Virus record (IMG/VR): IMGVR_UViG_3300043036_000110
Span: 1-37,283 of that record
Reading direction: 5' to 3' (one strand)
Source of the DNA: a virus
Lineage: Duplodnaviria > Caudoviricetes
DNA length: 37,283 nt
Part shown: positions 11,451 to 20,353 of the stretch, piece after piece
Layout: each line of letters opens with the position of its first letter
Numbering within the stretch: position 1 is the first letter of the stretch
Translations under genes and position numbers: made by a program
The notes under the pieces: model-generated
Databases searched by the model: none
What the model saw: only the letters and a program-made list of their open reading frames with translations
What the model was told of the DNA's origin: nothing

Positions 11451-14138
11451 ATGGGTTACGAACAAGTACCTGGAATGACAGGTAGTATTTCCGCTGGCGG
11501 TGAATACGACAACCTAGATACTACAAACTCAAATGTGTATCCAAAACTAGCGGCTGAAGATGCTGCTGCTGCAGCTCTTAGCGCGGCTCAAGCGTTAGCT
11601 TCCAAAAATGCTGCTGCTGCAAGTGCAACTGTAGCTCTCAACGCAGAAACTGTTGTAGCTGCAAGTGCCGCTTCCGCATTTACTTCAGCTACAAATGCAA
11701 GTGCTTCAGCTACCGCCGCATCTGCTGCATTATCTGCTGTAACTGAACAAGCGGTTATTGCAACAACTCAGGCCATTAACGCTGCAAACAGTGCAACGGC
11801 TGCTTCAACCTCTGAGGATAACGCTGGCACTTCTGAAACTAATGCTGCAGCTAGCGCTTCTACTGCAACTACCCAAGCAGGTGTTGCTACTACCCAAGCA
11901 GGTGTTGCTACCACACAGGCCACTAATGCAACAACTAGTGCAACATCCGCATCATCATCTGCTGCATCTGCTTTAGATTATAAAAATGCGGCTGCTCTGT
12001 CAGCATCAGGCGCAAGAACTTCTGAGCTAAGTGCTCTTGACGCAGCATCAGCGGCAGCATCCTCAGCAACTGACGCAAATGCTGCAGCTAACACAGCAAC
12101 TACTCAAGCAACTAACGCTTCGTCTAGTGCTTCCACAGCTACCACTCAGGCAGGTATTGCTACCACACAGGCTACTAACGCAGCAGCAAGTGCTTCAAAC
12201 GCTTCTACTTCGGCAAGCACAGCAACAACCAAAGCAAGTGAAGCAGCTACTAGTGCAAGTAATGCTGCAGCAAGCGCATCATCAGCCAGCTCTTCAGCTT
12301 CTACAGCAACAACTAAGGCAAGTGAAGCTAGTACATCTGCAACGGATGCAGCTTCTTCTGCTTCTAGTGCTTCTACTTCAGCTTCTACAGCTACCACACA
12401 GGCTACTAACGCAGCTTCATCTGCTTCGTCAGCAAGTGCATCTGCAAGTACAGCAACAACTAAGGCAAGTGAAGCAGATGTTTCGGCCACTGCTGCTGCA
12501 TCGTCTGCCTCTGGAGCTGCTACATCTGCTGTTTCAGCTGCTTCTAGTGCTGCTAGTGCTGCTGCTTTGTTAGATAACTTTGATGATCGTTATCTTGGGG
12601 CTAAAGCATCTGCTCCCTCTGTAGATAACGATGGTAACGCTTTAATTGTCGGTGCTTTGTACTTTGACACTACCGAAGGTAAGATGTTTGTTTATACTGC
12701 TAGCGGTTGGTTGGCAGCATCAAGCGCTTCGGTAGCAACGCTTGCTACATTTGAATTTGTAGCAACAGCTGGTCAAACAGTATTTAGTGGTAATGATGTC
12801 AATGGAGTTTCGTTATCTTATACTACGTCAGCGCTAATGATCTCGTTAAACGGGGTAGCCCTTCGTCCCGGTGATGATTTTACTGCTACAAATGGAACAT
12901 CAATTACTTTAACTTCTGCTGCTAGTTTAAATGATGAATTAGTTGTCTATGCGTTTGGCAGTTTTGTAATTGCTGATACTTACAGTGTCACGGCTGCTGA
13001 TGCTCAATTTTTACCGAAAGTAAACCCTAGCTATACAGGTACATTAACTGGCGGTACTGGCGTTGTGAATTTAGGCTCAGGCCAGTTCTACAAAGATGCG
13101 TCAGGTAACGTGGGTATTGGTACTGCTTCGCCTAATGGCAGACTGCAGATAACAGGCGGCACGACAAATGCCTCAAGTTTGGCGACTGCATATTCAGCAG
13201 CTGCCTTTACTCTTGTTCCTAAGTCAAGTTCAGGTTTTTCATTAGCTTTTGGCTCTGGGCCAAGTGATTTCCCGTATATTCAAATGAGTGCAGCGGGGTC
13301 TGTTGCTTCAGATATGGCATTGCAGCCCTACGGCGGCAACTTAGGTATTGGTACGGGTTCCCCACAACAACGCTTGGATGTAACTGGCGGTTATTTACAA
13401 CTTCGAGACTCAACAGGTAGCGGTGGGTATCGTCTTACCATTGGTGCTGATTCAACATCATGCCGTTTAAATTCAGTCGATAACACACCACTTACATTCA
13501 GCATGGGTGGCTCTGAGAAAGCCCGTATCGACTCCAGCGGTAACTTGCTGGTGGGGAAATCAACAACGGATGGAGCTACCGTAGGAACTTATATTGGCAC
13601 AGGTGGTGCTAATTTTGTGAGCAGTATTGCCTCAACAAATGACGGTCCTCAAATTCAAATTGCTAACGTAAATGCAAGTGTTGTTAACGGGTATCGTTTT
13701 ATTTCATTTCGTGCCAACGTAGGCGCTACTCAAGTTGGAACAATTACCACAAACGGTACAAGCACAACCGCATACAACACATCTTCTGATTATCGTTTGA
13801 AAGAAGACATCCAACCGATGACTAGAGCGTTGGAAAAAGTAGCAGCTCTAAAGCCTGTAACCTATACGTGGAAAGCAGACGGCTCTAATGGTCAAGGCTT
13901 TATCGCGCATGAACTACAAGAGGTTATTTCTGAATGTGTAACAGGTGAAAAAGACGCTGTTGAAACTTATACTGATGCGGAAGGTAATGAACAAACCCGC
14001 CCTGTATACCAAGGCATCGACACCAGCTTCTTAGTTGCAACTCTCACCGCAGCCATCCAAGAGCAACAAGTCTTAATCAACAAACAGCAAGCTGCGTTAA
14101 CAACACTCACAGCACGCATTGAAGCATTGGAGAATTAA
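11451..14138 (+). CDS. Long tail fibre with an Ala/Ser/Thr-rich shaft and a C-terminal intramolecular chaperone (peptidase S74-like)
   Basis: ATTQA/ATTKASEA repeats, FDDRYLGAK, ATAGQTVF, GNVGIGT repeats, TSSDYRLKEDI autocleavage motif, GFIAHE, terminal coiled coil. Confidence 0.9.
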   Translation: MGYEQVPGMTGSISAGGEYDNLDTTNSNVYPKLAAEDAAAAALSAAQALASKNAAAASATVALNAETVVAASAASAFTSATNASASATAASAALSAVTEQAVIATTQAINAANSATAASTSEDNAGTSETNAAASASTATTQAGVATTQAGVATTQATNATTSATSASSSAASALDYKNAAALSASGARTSELSALDAASAAASSATDANAAANTATTQATNASSSASTATTQAGIATTQATNAAASASNASTSASTATTKASEAATSASNAAASASSASSSASTATTKASEASTSATDAASSASSASTSASTATTQATNAASSASSASASASTATTKASEADVSATAAASSASGAATSAVSAASSAASAAALLDNFDDRYLGAKASAPSVDNDGNALIVGALYFDTTEGKMFVYTASGWLAASSASVATLATFEFVATAGQTVFSGNDVNGVSLSYTTSALMISLNGVALRPGDDFTATNGTSITLTSAASLNDELVVYAFGSFVIADTYSVTAADAQFLPKVNPSYTGTLTGGTGVVNLGSGQFYKDASGNVGIGTASPNGRLQITGGTTNASSLATAYSAAAFTLVPKSSSGFSLAFGSGPSDFPYIQMSAAGSVASDMALQPYGGNLGIGTGSPQQRLDVTGGYLQLRDSTGSGGYRLTIGADSTSCRLNSVDNTPLTFSMGGSEKARIDSSGNLLVGKSTTDGATVGTYIGTGGANFVSSIASTNDGPQIQIANVNASVVNGYRFISFRANVGATQVGTITTNGTSTTAYNTSSDYRLKEDIQPMTRALEKVAALKPVTYTWKADGSNGQGFIAHELQEVISECVTGEKDAVETYTDAEGNEQTRPVYQGIDTSFLVATLTAAIQEQQVLINKQQAALTTLTARIEALEN

Positions 14139-14140
14139 TA

Positions 14141-14758
14141 ATGGGAAAAGCTAGAAACTTATCAAAACTTATCGTAGGGAATACTGGGGCTATTGACGTT
14201 GCCTCTAGTATTGCAGACGGTTCTGTTACAACAACAAAAATCACCGATGCAAACGTCACAACATCTAAGATTGTAGATAACGCTATTACATCAGGAAAGA
14301 TTGCAGATAGCGCAATTACATCTTCTAAGATTGCTGATTTAACAATTGCTACTGGTGACATTGCTAACTTAGCGATTACTACTGCTAAGATCGCTGATGC
14401 AAACGTAACTAGTGCAAAACTAGAAAACTCAGGTGTCACTGCTGGTAGTTATGGAAGCTCATCTGCAATCCCATCAATTACAGTAGATGCTAAAGGGCGT
14501 GTAACTTCTGTCAGTACAAATGCGGTAGCTTCAGGTTCTGTTGCTTGGACTAGTGTAACCGGAAGACCAACCGCGCTAAGCTCATTCTCGAATGATATTG
14601 CCGCAGTTACTGCTGCTACGGTAGCAAGCTCTATACCAATAGTTGCAGGAGGTGGAGACCTTAGAACTACAACAGTTTACAAAGATTCAGCAAACTCAAT
14701 TCGCATTGGATATTACGCATATAACTGCAATTGCGCTTGCAACTGTAATTGCTGTTAA
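14141..14758 (+). CDS. Fibre-like protein with 10-aa IT..KIAD repeats and a Cys-rich C-terminal tail (YNCNCACNCNCC)
   Basis: Repeats seen directly; GVTAGSYG...ITVDAKGRVT fibre motif; all 6 Cys lie in the last 10 residues. Confidence 0.8.
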   Translation: MGKARNLSKLIVGNTGAIDVASSIADGSVTTTKITDANVTTSKIVDNAITSGKIADSAITSSKIADLTIATGDIANLAITTAKIADANVTSAKLENSGVTAGSYGSSSAIPSITVDAKGRVTSVSTNAVASGSVAWTSVTGRPTALSSFSNDIAAVTAATVASSIPIVAGGGDLRTTTVYKDSANSIRIGYYAYNCNCACNCNCC

Positions 14759-14769
14759 AAGGAAACAAA

Positions 14770-15576
14770 ATGAAAATTTTTTATTCGCCAGTTGCGCGTC
14801 AAAAAGTCAAAGTAAAATTAACTATCAATCAAGATGGTTTCATAATTGAACAAGCAAACCTAGTTCTTAAAACAGATGAGTTCGGTGTAAATCTAGTTGA
14901 TGCCGATGGAAATACCACAGGCGAATTAGTGGCTACGGAGTTTGATGACCGAATGAGGTATGATGTAAAGTTTGCTGACATTCTGACTCGCGAAGATCTA
15001 TCTGATCGTGCTGCTTATTGCTTTCCGTCAGGGCAGCTCCTTGCTCCAATGTTCAACTTTTGGCAAGCAACGCAGCCGGGACGATTGACTGGTCGTCAAC
15101 TTTCAATGCAAAACGGATTTAGCACAACAGCATGTTTGATTGTTCCTTTTAAAGACTCTGAGATTAACAATTGGGTGCTTGGTATTCACGTAAACCCAGA
15201 CCCTCAATTCTTTGAAATCATCAATGGAACGGCTGTTGAGCATCCAGTAGATTCTGTAGGTGGTCTTGGTTCTCTACGAGAAATCATGTCTCCATCTATT
15301 ACATTTGACAATCTTGAGGTAGTTGGTATTGCAGAGACAATTGTTGAAGTGCCATTTACTGTACTTGATTCAAGCGGTGAACAGCACCTTGGTGTCTGCG
15401 ATGTGTATCTTGAAGTTACTGGTGGAAACTTGCTTATGGCAAGGGTTCGTGCTGTGAATGGAAAAGGTATTGCTCGCATCTCTTTAGCTAACATGATGCC
15501 TAGCGATCAGTTCAAAATTAAAGCTGGCTTCAAATATTATTCAGGTGTCAGCGAATGCAAGATCACAGTGCAGTAA
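14770..15576 (+). CDS. Hypothetical protein (268 aa), possibly with an Ig-like C-terminal domain
   Basis: ATG at 14770 behind AAGGA; beta-strand-patterned C-terminus. The fold call is inference. Confidence 0.7.
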   Translation: MKIFYSPVARQKVKVKLTINQDGFIIEQANLVLKTDEFGVNLVDADGNTTGELVATEFDDRMRYDVKFADILTREDLSDRAAYCFPSGQLLAPMFNFWQATQPGRLTGRQLSMQNGFSTTACLIVPFKDSEINNWVLGIHVNPDPQFFEIINGTAVEHPVDSVGGLGSLREIMSPSITFDNLEVVGIAETIVEVPFTVLDSSGEQHLGVCDVYLEVTGGNLLMARVRAVNGKGIARISLANMMPSDQFKIKAGFKYYSGVSECKITVQ

Positions 15577-16151
15577 CCCTATGGCCTTCTGTTGTAGTAA
15601 TTGATATTGACAACAGAGACGTTCTTAATGCGTCTTTGTTGCCATTATTGCTTGATGTTTTTAACAACACATCAACTGGAAGTGAGCACTATGAGCGCAT
15701 ACCTCATAATATTTTTGAGATGAATGAGCCACCAATTCAAGAACTCAAAAACATACTAGTATCTATTGCGCGTTTTCACTATGACATTGGCGATAATTTT
15801 GAAATTGATGGGCACGAAATTGTTTCGTTTGATCGTCAATTTATTAAAACGCATGTCGATTCTGATGAAGGCGACTTAACATTACAGTACTTTGTAAAAG
15901 CACCACAAGAAAACCAAGAGCAGCCAGTCAATAAATTTGGCAACGCATCTTTTGTTTTGGTAAATCCTGCGCAACCTTCTGGATCATTTAGATTCAAAGA
16001 AGAAAGGCCCAGTGAGTACCCCCTACTACCAAGAGACGGCCTTGTTGTAATGTATAGATCACATATTCCCCACTACCAATGCCCATATAAAGGGGATGAG
16101 CCAATGGTTCAGGTAGTGTGTAACATCAAAATAAAAAGGACACCACATTAA
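15555..16151 (+). CDS. 2OG-Fe(II) oxygenase-like protein (HxD...H)
   Basis: HVD, then LTLQYFV, P.DG.VVMY.SHIPH..., matching the layout of phage 2OG-Fe(II) oxygenases. Confidence 0.7.
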   Translation: MQDHSAVTLWPSVVVIDIDNRDVLNASLLPLLLDVFNNTSTGSEHYERIPHNIFEMNEPPIQELKNILVSIARFHYDIGDNFEIDGHEIVSFDRQFIKTHVDSDEGDLTLQYFVKAPQENQEQPVNKFGNASFVLVNPAQPSGSFRFKEERPSEYPLLPRDGLVVMYRSHIPHYQCPYKGDEPMVQVVCNIKIKRTPH

Positions 16152-17525
16152 ATGGCAACATTCAACATCACATCAAAACACCCAGAGTCGGGTCAGATTG
16201 CAAAATTTCTATACCGAACAGATGACAGCGCACTCCTTCACGAAGATGGAACTCCTGTTTTATCCACCTCTGGTCGCACGTTTACTGATGCCGTAATTTT
16301 TGACAAGGAGTCTCCACTCAAAAAGTCAAATCAAATTAAGAGGCTAAAGATTTCTCTTGGCTTAAGCTGCAACTATGAATGTAGCTACTGTAGCCAAAGG
16401 TTTGTTGAACGTTCAGTTGAAACTAACCCACACGATGTAGATGCTTTCATGGTATCTCTACCAAACTGGTTTGATGGTGGTGATGATGGAATTGGCGGTG
16501 GTGTGTCTGTTGAGTTTTGGGGTGGTGAGCCTTTTGTGTATTGGAAGACATTAAAACCATTAGCTGAAAAGATTAAGGCTAAATATCCAAACATCAGATT
16601 TTCTGTTATCACAAATGGCTCTTTACTAGATTCAGAAAAGAACGCATGGCTTGATGAAAACGAATTTACTGTTTCTATTTCCCATGATGCTGGAGGTCAG
16701 TCATTCCGAGGACCAGACCCGTTAACAGATGAGGGTTCACGTAATGCTGTTCTCGACTTATATGCCCGATTGAAGCCAAAAGGTAGATTTAGTTTTAACA
16801 CAATGATTCATGCTGGTAATCAGTCTCGTGATGCTGCTTACGAATATTTTAAGCGGTTTACTGGAGACGAAGATGTTCCGCTTGGTCAAGGTGAGTTCAT
16901 TGATGCTTATGATGAAGGTGGGCTTGGCAACTCTCTTAAGAGTTTGTCTGATGAAATTAAATTCAGACTCAATTCCTTAACCGAAATGCGTGTTGGTAAA
17001 GGCTCTAAATTCAGTATTCCTGTAATGAAAATTCAAGGGTTTATTGATACTGTTCGCTATCAAAAGACAATCACATCTATCTCACAAAAGTGTGGGATGG
17101 ACGACCCAAGTAATATTGCTGTTGACCTTAATGGTAACGTAATTACTTGTCAAAACACATCAGCATCCGCAATAGCTCCTAATGGTAATAGCCACAAGAT
17201 TGGACATGTTGATGACTTCGAAAACATTAGGTTAGATACGGCAACTCACTTAGCAAAACGAAGCGAATGTTTATCATGCCCAGTAGTCCATTTGTGTGCT
17301 GGCTCTTGCATGTTCCTTGAAGGTGACTTGTTTGAAGCTTCATGCAAAAATTCTTTCTCTGACAACATTGTGTACTTTGCTGCTGCCTTTGAAGTGATGA
17401 CTGGTTTTGTTCCTGTCTACATTGATGGCAATCAACGTGAAGACCGCAAAGATATTTTCGGCATGGTGAATGGCATACCAGCTAACACCAGAAAACCATT
17501 TCCAATTCCTGTTGTATCAGCTTAA
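16152..17525 (+). CDS. Radical SAM enzyme with SPASM domain
   Basis: CNYECSYC (CxxxCxxC), FWGGEP, ITNGSLL, ISHD; SPASM-type Cys set KCG...ITC...CLSCPVVHLCAGSC...C. Confidence 0.95.
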   Translation: MATFNITSKHPESGQIAKFLYRTDDSALLHEDGTPVLSTSGRTFTDAVIFDKESPLKKSNQIKRLKISLGLSCNYECSYCSQRFVERSVETNPHDVDAFMVSLPNWFDGGDDGIGGGVSVEFWGGEPFVYWKTLKPLAEKIKAKYPNIRFSVITNGSLLDSEKNAWLDENEFTVSISHDAGGQSFRGPDPLTDEGSRNAVLDLYARLKPKGRFSFNTMIHAGNQSRDAAYEYFKRFTGDEDVPLGQGEFIDAYDEGGLGNSLKSLSDEIKFRLNSLTEMRVGKGSKFSIPVMKIQGFIDTVRYQKTITSISQKCGMDDPSNIAVDLNGNVITCQNTSASAIAPNGNSHKIGHVDDFENIRLDTATHLAKRSECLSCPVVHLCAGSCMFLEGDLFEASCKNSFSDNIVYFAAAFEVMTGFVPVYIDGNQREDRKDIFGMVNGIPANTRKPFPIPVVSA

Positions 17526-17548: not shown

Positions 17549-17743
17549 GTGAATGACCATAATTTAACAACAGAAACGGGGGTAGCAATGATTACTAAAG
17601 CCACCCCTCCAGTGACTATATCCTTAGCAACAGTAGCTGGCTATCAGGTATCAGAGTTAGTCCTATGGGCTACTCTCATATACACTGTGTTGATGATCGG
17701 CCATAAAGCCCTTCAGCTCTACAGAGAATTTAAGGCTCCATAA
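17549..17743 (+). CDS. Small membrane protein, holin/antiholin candidate
   Basis: Hydrophobic segments and a basic C-terminus; first gene of the lysis region. Confidence 0.55.
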   Translation: MNDHNLTTETGVAMITKATPPVTISLATVAGYQVSELVLWATLIYTVLMIGHKALQLYREFKAP

Positions 17744-18477
17744 TGCCACTCATACTTCTTGCAGGAGCAATCAAAGCAGTTGAAGCAATCCAGCAAGGGT
17801 GCGAGATGTATAAGGAATACAAAGGAACAGTTCTTAAAGCAAAGAAAACATTTGATGAAGTCAAAGGTATCGCTACTGAAGTAACAAACGTCAGTACAGG
17901 TATCTGGGGCTTTTTCAAATCAAAGTTCTTTGCTGATGAACCACCTCCTAAAGTAGTTGCTCCTAAAGCTGTAGAGGAAATTAAGAAAATAACTAAGCCT
18001 ACAAAAGAGTATGAAGAGTTTGATGAGCAGTCTGTTAAGAATGAACTCATTAAGAACCTCAAGATATTCTTTAAGGCTATGATCGCTATGAAAAAGAAGA
18101 TAGCAGAACAACAGGAGCGTATTGATAATACCGAAATAAATCCTGATGATCTACTCGATATATCTCTTGATCATGTAGTAGCTCTCAAAGAAATGGAAAA
18201 GCTACAAAAAGAAATTCGTGAGATAATGGTTTACCAGAGTCCTCCCGAGCTAGGCGCATTATACACAGACGTAGTTAATATGTTTGGTATTGTACAAGAA
18301 AAACAAGAAGCAACTCATCTTCGTAATATGAGAAAAAAGAAAGAGGCATACCAAAGAAAGCAGCGACTTATAAATAAGTTTCACAGTAGAATTTCTTGGG
18401 TAGTTGTCATGGCAGTAATTATTTTAGAAGTATGGGGGCTGTTATTAACAATTCATCTAGCGAAACCGCATATATAA
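17743..18477 (+). CDS. Hypothetical coiled-coil protein with a C-terminal TM helix
   Basis: TAATG overlap with the previous gene; terminal hydrophobic stretch. Confidence 0.75.
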   Translation: MPLILLAGAIKAVEAIQQGCEMYKEYKGTVLKAKKTFDEVKGIATEVTNVSTGIWGFFKSKFFADEPPPKVVAPKAVEEIKKITKPTKEYEEFDEQSVKNELIKNLKIFFKAMIAMKKKIAEQQERIDNTEINPDDLLDISLDHVVALKEMEKLQKEIREIMVYQSPPELGALYTDVVNMFGIVQEKQEATHLRNMRKKKEAYQRKQRLINKFHSRISWVVVMAVIILEVWGLLLTIHLAKPHI

Positions 18478-19693: not shown

Positions 19694-20353
19694 ATGTCTG
19701 AATTTAAAGGCGTACAACTTAAAAGAAGTACTACAGCAGGAGCCGTTCCTGAAGCAGCACAGCTAGTTGAAGGCGAATTAGCTATTAACTTGTTGGACAA
19801 AAAAATATACAGTAAGAACGCTACAACTGTATTTGAATTAAAAGGTGCTGTTGATGACGGTACTATCACTACTGCTAAACTAGCATCTAGTGTTTTAACT
19901 GGGTTCCTTAACTCAGTTTACCCAGTTGGTTCTCAGTATGTTAACTATTCTAACGGGACTAACCCTGCAACACTACTAGGTATTGGTACTTGGGTAGCTG
20001 TCTCCGGTAGGGTCGTTGTTGGTCTTGACCCTGCTGATCCATTATTTGATACTGCAGGTGAAACAGGTGGTTCTAAGAATACACCTCTTGTATCTCACAG
20101 CCATACAGGTACTGCTACTAATACCTCACTAACAGGTGTGTTCCCCACATCTGCAGGTGCAAACTTGTATTCAGGTACCTTCACAAGAGGTTCAGGATAC
20201 GGTGGTAACGGTGGTGAACCTCAAACTAACTACCCAGTTAACTTTGATGGTAGTCACACTCATAATTTGTCAATTAGTACAGAAGGTACCTCTGGTACTG
20301 ACACTAATTTACAACCATACATTGTTGCTTACGTTTGGAAACGTACGGCGTAA
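19694..20353 (+). CDS. Short tail fibre / collar-type protein
   Basis: LKRSTT..AVP...L.EGELAINL N-terminus; YPVGS.Y...NPATLLG.GTW...GRVVVG; HSH/HTH motifs; NLQPYIVAYVWKRTA end. Confidence 0.75.
   Translation: MSEFKGVQLKRSTTAGAVPEAAQLVEGELAINLLDKKIYSKNATTVFELKGAVDDGTITTAKLASSVLTGFLNSVYPVGSQYVNYSNGTNPATLLGIGTWVAVSGRVVVGLDPADPLFDTAGETGGSKNTPLVSHSHTGTATNTSLTGVFPTSAGANLYSGTFTRGSGYGGNGGEPQTNYPVNFDGSHTHNLSISTEGTSGTDTNLQPYIVAYVWKRTA

Follow-up and report, generated by a model that had tools for sequence, protein, structure and literature searches.

An Asn-Cys ladder on phage fibre-like proteins travels with a radical SAM/SPASM enzyme

Among the described systems closest to the one considered here are radical S-adenosylmethionine (SAM) enzymes that crosslink peptides. 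In the enteropeptin thiomorpholine, Cys is reported to be joined to the residue just before it, in a sequence of the ...G-O-C... type (PMC12395415), while TqqB is reported to crosslink neighbouring residues and NxxcB to accept Asn, Ala, Gln and Asp (both PMC9389541). In CteB, an open site on the first auxiliary cluster is described as binding the substrate Cys, the cluster of anSME being fully ligated (PMC8326336), and CrpC, like the enzyme discussed below, is reported to have seven SPASM cysteines (PMC13692751). The locus compared with them here is a block of four genes (positions 14141 to 17525) in a stretch of 37,283 nucleotides from a virus of the Caudoviricetes (IMG/VR record IMGVR_UViG_3300043036_000110), the whole of which is called the window. 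The first gene encodes a fibre-like protein that ends in alternating Asn and Cys residues, referred to as the ladder, and the last encodes a radical SAM enzyme with a SPASM domain. These two components recur as a pair in unrelated phages and prophage-like loci.

Co-occurrence of the ladder and the enzyme

The four open reading frames (ORFs) lie on the + strand, with an 895-aa tail fibre carrying an S74 chaperone on one side and holin, spanin and endolysin genes on the other. In gene order they are spaced by an 11-nt gap, a 22-nt overlap and a 0-nt gap, which reproduces the tight coupling between long fibre and lysis genes described in an earlier, sequence-only reading of this DNA.

14141..14758, + strand: predicted substrate, a fibre-like protein of 205 aa whose C-terminus carries the Asn-Cys ladder (PHROG tail-fibre matches, Cys positions, tip alignment)
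14723..14755, + strand: the ladder, N195-C196, N197-C198, A199-C200, N201-C202, N203-C204 and C205, the predicted modification sites (sequence and the dipeptide rule from relatives)
14770..15576, + strand: 268-aa partner (type A), likely a tip cap or chaperone (AlphaFold2 model, immunoglobulin (Ig) domain match, locus counts)
15555..16151, + strand: 198-aa 2-oxoglutarate (2OG)-Fe(II) oxygenase-like protein, optional, likely a tailoring enzyme (phrog_81, conserved His)
16152..17525, + strand: 457-aa radical SAM enzyme with a seven-Cys SPASM domain, the predicted maturase (Pfam, TIGR04085, phrog_1802, CteB-like fold)

The 457-aa enzyme belongs to a large phage family of at least 2,633 clusters at E<=1e-30 in a protein search in which 7,998 candidates were scored; when 50%-identity representatives were searched with a profile, 546 reached 1e-30, of which the best 150 were inspected. 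Eight of 50,697 annotated phage records cover at least 80% of the enzyme, among them those of phages RSP15, JWF and 2-1 (45-47% identity) and of RP12 and RP31 (25%). The enzyme was used to fetch 190 loci (30 close viral matches, the best 80 of 162 viral and the best 80 of 228 genomic ones), to which four annotated loci were added. The resulting 194 loci fell into 124 clusters at 90% enzyme identity, or 123 after exclusion of the distant RP12 locus (L034). By their record titles, 56 of the 80 genomic loci belong to Burkholderiales or betaproteobacteria, and the 14 genomic loci that were inspected are mostly prophage-like tail and lysis blocks, as judged from ORF lists.

A ladder gene was counted if it lay on the same strand within 5 kb of the enzyme gene and carried an Asn-Cys ladder at its C-terminus or directly before a recognisable junction. 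Such a gene was found in 79 of the 81 clusters with full flanks (at least 3.5 kb upstream and 2.5 kb downstream of the enzyme) and in 109 of the 123 clusters overall; the same rule applied to ORFs on the opposite strand, as a control, returned 10 of 2,547. In the reciprocal test, the DNA pattern for NCNCNC followed by a stop retrieved 118 stretches, with 53 of the 117 new loci being frames of fewer than 60 residues. The enzyme was present within 6 kb of 25 of the 30 full-flank ORFs of at least 60 aa that end in NCNCNC (19 of 24 distinct proteins), in a set that shares many contigs with the first one. All 25 enzyme-linked ORFs are accompanied by the type A partner, and fibre-type ladders had the enzyme in 25 of 25 cases. 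The expectation that homologues of the enzyme would be accompanied by an upstream ladder gene, raised when the sequence was first read, thus holds in both directions, with 79/81 and 25/30.

Two observations concern loci that depart from this arrangement. In L089 (1-4644), which has no small ladder gene, a giant DUF4815 protein upstream of the enzyme carries an internal Asn-Cys-Asp-Cys motif. Five loci (L208, L268, L211, L249 and L256, the fourth with little downstream flank) encode non-fibre phage proteins of 184-202 aa that end in NCNCNC, with no such enzyme nearby.

The Asn-Cys unit and the 457-aa enzyme

In the 205-aa protein, Cys occurs solely at positions 196, 198, 200, 202, 204 and 205, in agreement with the earlier statement that its cysteines are confined to the terminal tail; by random placement, all six would fall inside the last ten residues with p = 2e-9. 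Residues 12-173 match tail-fibre and unknown PHROG families, and the last 85 residues align with the ladder-bearing tips of 39 other proteins. The spacer residues of the ladders (n=423) are mainly Asn (281), followed by Ala (51), Asp (51), Gln (9) and Gly (2), with N, A, D and Q together making up 93%, and 77 of 84 distinct ladders have Asn immediately before their first Cys. Alternative-frame false ladders in L121 and L168, both of which have a true ladder gene, were excluded from these residue counts.

Many tips have additional cysteines upstream of the ladder. The register was tested in 83 tips dereplicated at 60%, isolated cysteines being those with no other Cys within four residues (n=136). 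Asn occupies position -1 of 121 of them (89%), against a background of 13%, while position -3, the acceptor position of the NxxC type, holds Asn in 12/136 (9%), which is below background, and positions +1 and +3 in 19/136 each (14%); a milder excess of Asn is seen at +2, +4 and -4 (21-32%). Among neighbouring genes, 109 of 2,567 cysteines are preceded by Asn, and in the shafts 4 of 26. The conserved unit is X-Cys, where X is Asn or, less often, Ala, Asp or Gln, and it is under selection in the tip only. Since the adjacent Asn-Cys is conserved and no excess is found at -3, the data speak against the NxxC register and favour an enteropeptin-like ring that joins Cys to the preceding residue. The spacing of NxxcB and PapB (NxxC, CxxxD), which had served as the original analogy, is therefore replaced by an adjacent dipeptide.

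The shafts that bear ladders are unrelated to each other and include collagen repeats, CBM5/12, shufflon-N, plain fibres and minimal proteins of 90-190 aa; among cultured phages, ladders are found in RSP15, Achromobacter phage JWF and 2-1. The chain ends no more than 22 residues past the ladder in 98 of 122 ladder proteins, while in the others the ladder is followed by a Hint domain (9), an S74 domain (1) or an unnamed 'KIIC' domain (14). Since Hint and S74 domains are self-cleaving, the mature form of the proteins that carry them would terminate at the ladder or close to it. The third kind was seen in L096:6436-7320 and 13 similar proteins, in which the ladder is followed by a domain of about 170 aa that begins with KIIC, has conserved Trp and Ala-Asp-Gln motifs and a hydrophobic C-terminal stretch, and gave no Pfam, PHROG or named ESM Atlas match. 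Possibly, it is a new cleavable or membrane-anchoring domain. Six clusters (L003, L006, L010, L027, L029 and L095) have three tandem ladder genes that differ in their pre-ladder sequences, an arrangement that would fit a heterotrimeric tip. In the locus of Ralstonia phage RP12 (NC_041911.1; L034:4000-11100), three radical SAM genes are preceded upstream by a 65-aa ORF that has no annotation and ends in an Asn-Cys ladder; the last of these genes encodes a distant relative of the 457-aa enzyme.

The 457-aa protein has a CxxxCxxC motif (C73, C77, C80), a GGEP motif and a partial TIM barrel. It scores above the Pfam Radical_SAM cut-off, reaches 32.1 bits against the SPASM profile TIGR04085 (cut-off 27) and matches phrog_1802 at 7e-65, and so the CxxxCxxC and SPASM-type Cys set initially recognised from the sequence are confirmed by both profile cut-offs. 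Ten cysteines are invariant in 119 of 119 aligned enzymes, three of the SAM cluster and seven of the SPASM domain. Between C314 and C333, where anSME has more, none of the 119 has an eighth SPASM Cys, and all have Gln334. Among curated NCBIfam maturase families, the enzyme is below every cut-off shown (25 of the 39 families listed), the best score being that of PapB (59.7 bits, cut-off 340); those of QhpD (48.6/453), anSME (43.4/349) and SCIFF (36.7/425) are lower. Membership of TIGR04463 (radical SAM versus Cys-rich proteins) was considered and rejected, at 29.9 bits with a cut-off of 525.

The structure model of the enzyme has a predicted local distance difference test score (pLDDT) of 92.6. 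Its closest fold by VIA is CteB, with Z 23.7 (vs 20.2) and a root-mean-square deviation (rmsd) of 4.0 over 351 aligned residues; a sequence search of the SPASM piece against the Protein Data Bank gave chance matches only. Seven SPASM cysteines and a CteB-like fold, the latter taken from the model, fit thioether chemistry, and the enzyme probably works like a thioether-forming enzyme while being a member of no named family. Of the reactions first named for comparison, thioether formation fits the enzyme, and the specific NxxcB/PapB register does not fit the tips. Formylglycine formation of the anSME type, also mentioned at that stage, is now considered less probable, since the SPASM domain lacks an eighth Cys and C333 is followed by Gln instead of Asp; in anSME, the Asp that follows the Cys of the first auxiliary cluster (AuxI) acts as a base. 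Three other relatives of the enzyme (P0257, P0212 and P0235) have long C-terminal extensions, which in P0235 include a second fused radical SAM domain.

Partner, oxygenase and surrounding genes

The type A partner, which is 268 aa long when counted from the ATG (the ORF list starts the same frame at TTG 14749), has an N-terminal domain (1-170) of no named family and an invasin/intimin-type Ig domain (175-268). Its AlphaFold2 model has a pLDDT of 92, with the Ig domain matching at Z 10-11 and an rmsd of about 2.4 over 88-91 residues. Over its full length, the model is matched in BFVD only by entries that are unnamed or uncharacterised, and the ESM Atlas gave no named family. Aligned partner sequences vary too much to define a pattern for retrieving loci. 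Type A is encoded in 54 of the 81 loci, in 52 of them between the ladder gene and the enzyme gene, and is likely a tip cap or chaperone. A type B partner, with an N-terminal domain and a helical C-terminus, was seen in 12 loci, including L029:5102-5866, L082:4303-5004 and JWF (gp29). It stands in place of type A in 10 of the 81 loci; both together were found in 0/81 and neither in 17/81. The comparison of the type A and type B profiles was not significant (hhalign E 0.27), and their short motifs look alike. Rank correlations of co-divergence over 68 loci ranged from -0.03 to 0.29, the partner and tip scores being near the noise floor.

The 198-aa protein matches phrog_81, a 2OG-Fe(II) oxygenase family, at 5e-7 and has a putative iron triad H100-x-D102...H173, in line with the oxygenase-like assignment given to it earlier. 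It has profile matches to 3bvc and 2rg4, and the two His residues are invariant in 50 of 50 aligned sequences; the protein itself has no Pfam match, and five of six relatives tested match PF13759. The family occurs in 45 of the 81 loci, lies between the ladder gene and the enzyme gene in 35 and shows the exact order of the window in 30. Since the oxygenase and the type A partner are both optional, the core consists of the ladder and the enzyme; in the four-gene system originally envisaged this core is upheld, and the oxygenase and partner are not its fixed parts. Sister loci carry other tailoring-type genes, encoding a halogenase, an Asp/Asn beta-hydroxylase, a desaturase, a sulfotransferase, a cupin, an aminotransferase-V, extra radical SAM enzymes and B12 radical SAM enzymes; such genes stand beside the cassette in L097, L106, L098, L109, L110, L184, L025 and L078.

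The attachment of the 205-aa protein may involve the long fibre encoded immediately upstream:

11451..14138, + strand: long tail fibre of 895 aa that carries an S74 chaperone; the 205-aa protein may dock on a domain formed by its residues 434-505

A 'KARNL'-type N-terminus, as in the 205-aa protein, and the fibre domain 434-505 occur jointly in three locus groups that are unrelated, and nowhere else among the fetched loci; this suggests that the 205-aa protein attaches to the long fibre.

The window, a phage morphogenesis region, contains genes of the terminase, an SU10-type portal, the major capsid protein and an adaptor; among annotated phages, the major capsid protein is best matched by that of Roseobacter phage CRP-7 (53.6%). 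Scans of the cassette for promoters and terminators gave chance level only, and its GC content (40-41%) does not depart from that of the surroundings. Among the listed sequencing runs that contain the sequence, three are DNA runs and none is an RNA run. Positions 17743-18477, between holin and spanin, encode a 244-aa helical protein with a hydrophobic C-terminus and no credible family match in profile scans. After the lysis genes, a further tail-type protein with a T4 long-fibre-like N-terminus and a Gp10_C domain (19694-20353) is followed by phoH. A portable tail-module cassette is the best explanation for the four genes.

Predicted modification and comparison with known systems

It is likely that the enzyme acts on the Asn-Cys units. 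The chance that it forms an adjacent thioether ring from each pair is put somewhat above even. In such a reaction, the Cys thiol would occupy the iron site left open on the first auxiliary cluster; the deoxyadenosyl radical would abstract hydrogen from the Asn just before the Cys, and C-S bond formation would follow, with a change of -2 Da per pair, for up to 4-5 pairs in the 205-aa protein. The acceptor carbon might be either beta, giving a seven-membered ring, or alpha, giving a six-membered thiomorpholinone, with beta slightly favoured because Asn and Asp are preferred and Gly is nearly absent in the spacers. The ladder would have to end the mature chain, since the domains that follow it start right behind it and are of the self-cleaving kind in 10 of 24. 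The rigid tip might then bind the Ig-domain partner and/or a host receptor, and the oxygenase could add an optional hydroxylation. That the tip serves host binding is judged probable.

Several observations weigh against this reading. The sample is tilted to close relatives, the loci being the best-scoring pattern matches (best 80 of 162 and of 228) plus the 30 close ones. No ladder gene was found in range in L051 and L089 of the 81 full-flank clusters, nor in L065, which has 5 kb upstream and a short downstream flank. The five exceptions of the reciprocal test lack the enzyme within 6 kb. One is a doubtful 56-aa ORF, and the other four are non-fibre proteins, of which three lie in head-gene blocks. 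An NCNCNC tail alone thus does not imply the enzyme; in non-fibre phage proteins it is probably an unrelated use of the motif. As regards the enzyme, an additional Cys lies between C314 and C333 in 13 of 131 divergent relatives, the invariant H348 and H366 could supply the eighth cluster ligand, and Foldseek ranks anSME first for the model. Active-site residues, placed by motif landmarks at six positions taken from the available description of such sites (PMC10288494), are S81, W123, T154, S177, Q334 and N335, against F112, F152, T186, S210, H363 and Q364 in CteB, so that four of six differ; His, which CteB has at the position following C333, is found there in 26 of 131 divergent relatives. 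Residues 1-60 are modelled with three strands and no helices, which argues against a canonical RiPP (ribosomally synthesised and post-translationally modified peptide) recognition element (RRE); the alignment range with CteB starts at residue 1.

Part of this evidence bears on the proposal that the same Asn-Cys pairs undergo some other chemistry, namely Cys beta-carbon oxidation (to a thioaldehyde, a formylglycine or a backbone heterocycle) or epimerisation or desaturation of Asn, with or without the oxygenase. The Foldseek ranking and the active-site differences from CteB point that way, the dipeptide rule fixes the site and not the reaction, and sister loci carry other tailoring enzymes; however, the second AuxI Cys of anSME is absent, Gln replaces Asp after the equivalent Cys, and the N/A/D/Q spacer alphabet matches the acceptor range of radical thioether formation, which makes other chemistry unlikely. 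Thioethers might also lie in the NxxC register, from Cys to the Asn three residues upstream as in NxxcB, or between the chains of a trimer. Ladders do hold overlapping NxxC motifs, and variability is highest at the last spacer (79% N/A/D/Q vs 94-98%), as an i-3 link predicts; yet that figure is lowered by the Hint junction and by terminal CC/CCC endings counted in the run, and with Asn at -3 of isolated cysteines under background such links are quite improbable.

The ladder might instead carry no covalent modification, three chains forming a metal-binding or disulfide-locked core and the enzyme having another target or helping to load the metal. The fibres of T4 have a His-x-His iron needle, and phage fibres are said to bear iron in the 'Ferrojan horse' idea. 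Alternating cysteines would face one side of a strand, the occurrence of three ladder genes in tandem, seen in 6 clusters, points to trimers, four non-fibre proteins end in NCNCNC without the enzyme, and the Asn-Cys rule could itself be structural, as an Asn ladder, which tells against the thioether ring as well. Such a core is nevertheless improbable, as it leaves unexplained the Asn before isolated cysteines (89%), the presence of the enzyme beside 25/25 fibre-type ladders in the reciprocal test and the fact that the partner and oxygenase are dispensable while the ladder and enzyme are not. As some carriers are just 90-190 aa long and Cys-rich throughout, and sister loci have halogenase, desaturase, sulfotransferase and B12 radical SAM genes, the ladder could also be cut off and released as a RiPP-like small molecule (a signal, toxin or metallophore) rather than form part of the virion. 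This is very improbable: long fibres with collagen or fibre shafts are numerous among the carriers, the cassette lies in the tail modules of the inspected loci, and the scan of neighbouring genes brought up no conspicuous protease or exporter; the gene context favours a retained tip over a released core.

The thioether-ring reading may be extended to the proposal that a large group of phages of Proteobacteria build, on a host-binding fibre tip, a non-protein-like polymer of enzyme-made sulfur heterocycles, which is then hydroxylated or tailored in other ways and displayed as a natural-product mimic or as an anchor for an interchangeable Ig-domain adhesin. This extension is offered tentatively, at less than even chances. 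If it were true, RiPP chemistry would serve as a step of virion assembly, with a leader-free enzyme converting any Asn-Cys pair in a protein tip. More generally, if the ladder is modified as proposed, a host-recognition part would be completed by a radical enzyme that the phage itself encodes, and virion assembly would include a step of a new kind. The proposal would also account for a gene block that is widespread yet unannotated; recombinant fibres of carrier phages would be incomplete without the enzyme, and the enzyme, as an iterative Asn-Cys cyclase acting on full-size proteins, would be of interest to peptide chemistry.

The cassette is real, widespread and undescribed within the literature searched. 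The open literature, with subscription journals and bioRxiv supplements outside the scope of the search, gave no description of such a phage system, in keeping with the earlier remark that no characterised system of this kind was known. One supplement of a compendium of 15,000 enzymes has no 'phage' entry, and neither 'phage' nor 'tail' appears in the main text of the CrpC paper, nor 'phage' in three of its supplements (PMC13692751).

The nearest match in register is the enteropeptin enzyme KgrC, reported to form a radical SAM thioether from Cys to the residue immediately before it, as the phage tips imply; unlike them, enteropeptin has one ring in a short secreted peptide and an Arg/ornithine acceptor, whereas the phage proteins have up to many Asn-Cys units in a fibre-like protein (PMC12395415, PMC10288494). 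NxxcB is described as forming a Cys-to-Asn beta-thioether in NxxcA, with Ala, Gln and Asp as further acceptors that match the spacer alphabet of the ladders, but its acceptor lies at -3 (Cys23 to Asn20) in a single link of a short peptide, while the phage Asn lies at -1 (PMC9389541, PMC8326336). The ranthisynthases CteB/SCIFF, PapB and QhpD resemble the phage enzyme in fold, CteB being the closest to its model, and in the seven-Cys SPASM domain, and PapB is its best NCBIfam match; in contrast, the phage enzyme is below their cut-offs, has 16% identity, differs at four of six active-site residues and has no helical RRE in the model. As to anSME, it is the top Foldseek match and its name is the label borne by the GenBank record of JWF, but it has an eight-Cys SPASM domain with Cys-Asp where the phage enzyme has seven Cys and Cys-Gln, and no sulfatase was found among the scanned proteins of the window.

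Two systems resemble the cassette in the kind of substrate. The methyltransferase MepM is reported to methylate the mycobacteriophage tail protein Gp34, an enzymatic modification of a tail protein that is required for adsorption; MepM is host-encoded, whereas the enzyme of the cassette is phage-encoded, radical-based and travels with its predicted substrate (PMC13445384). CrpC of Methanococcus voltae is described as a seven-Cys SPASM enzyme that thioether-links the repetitive Cys-rich C-terminal region of a full-size protein, CrpA, and differs in its archaeal chromosomal location, its C-X-X-Q/D motif and its RRE and leader (PMC13692751). Beside these systems, the cassette would be radical-SAM protein cross-linking in a new setting.

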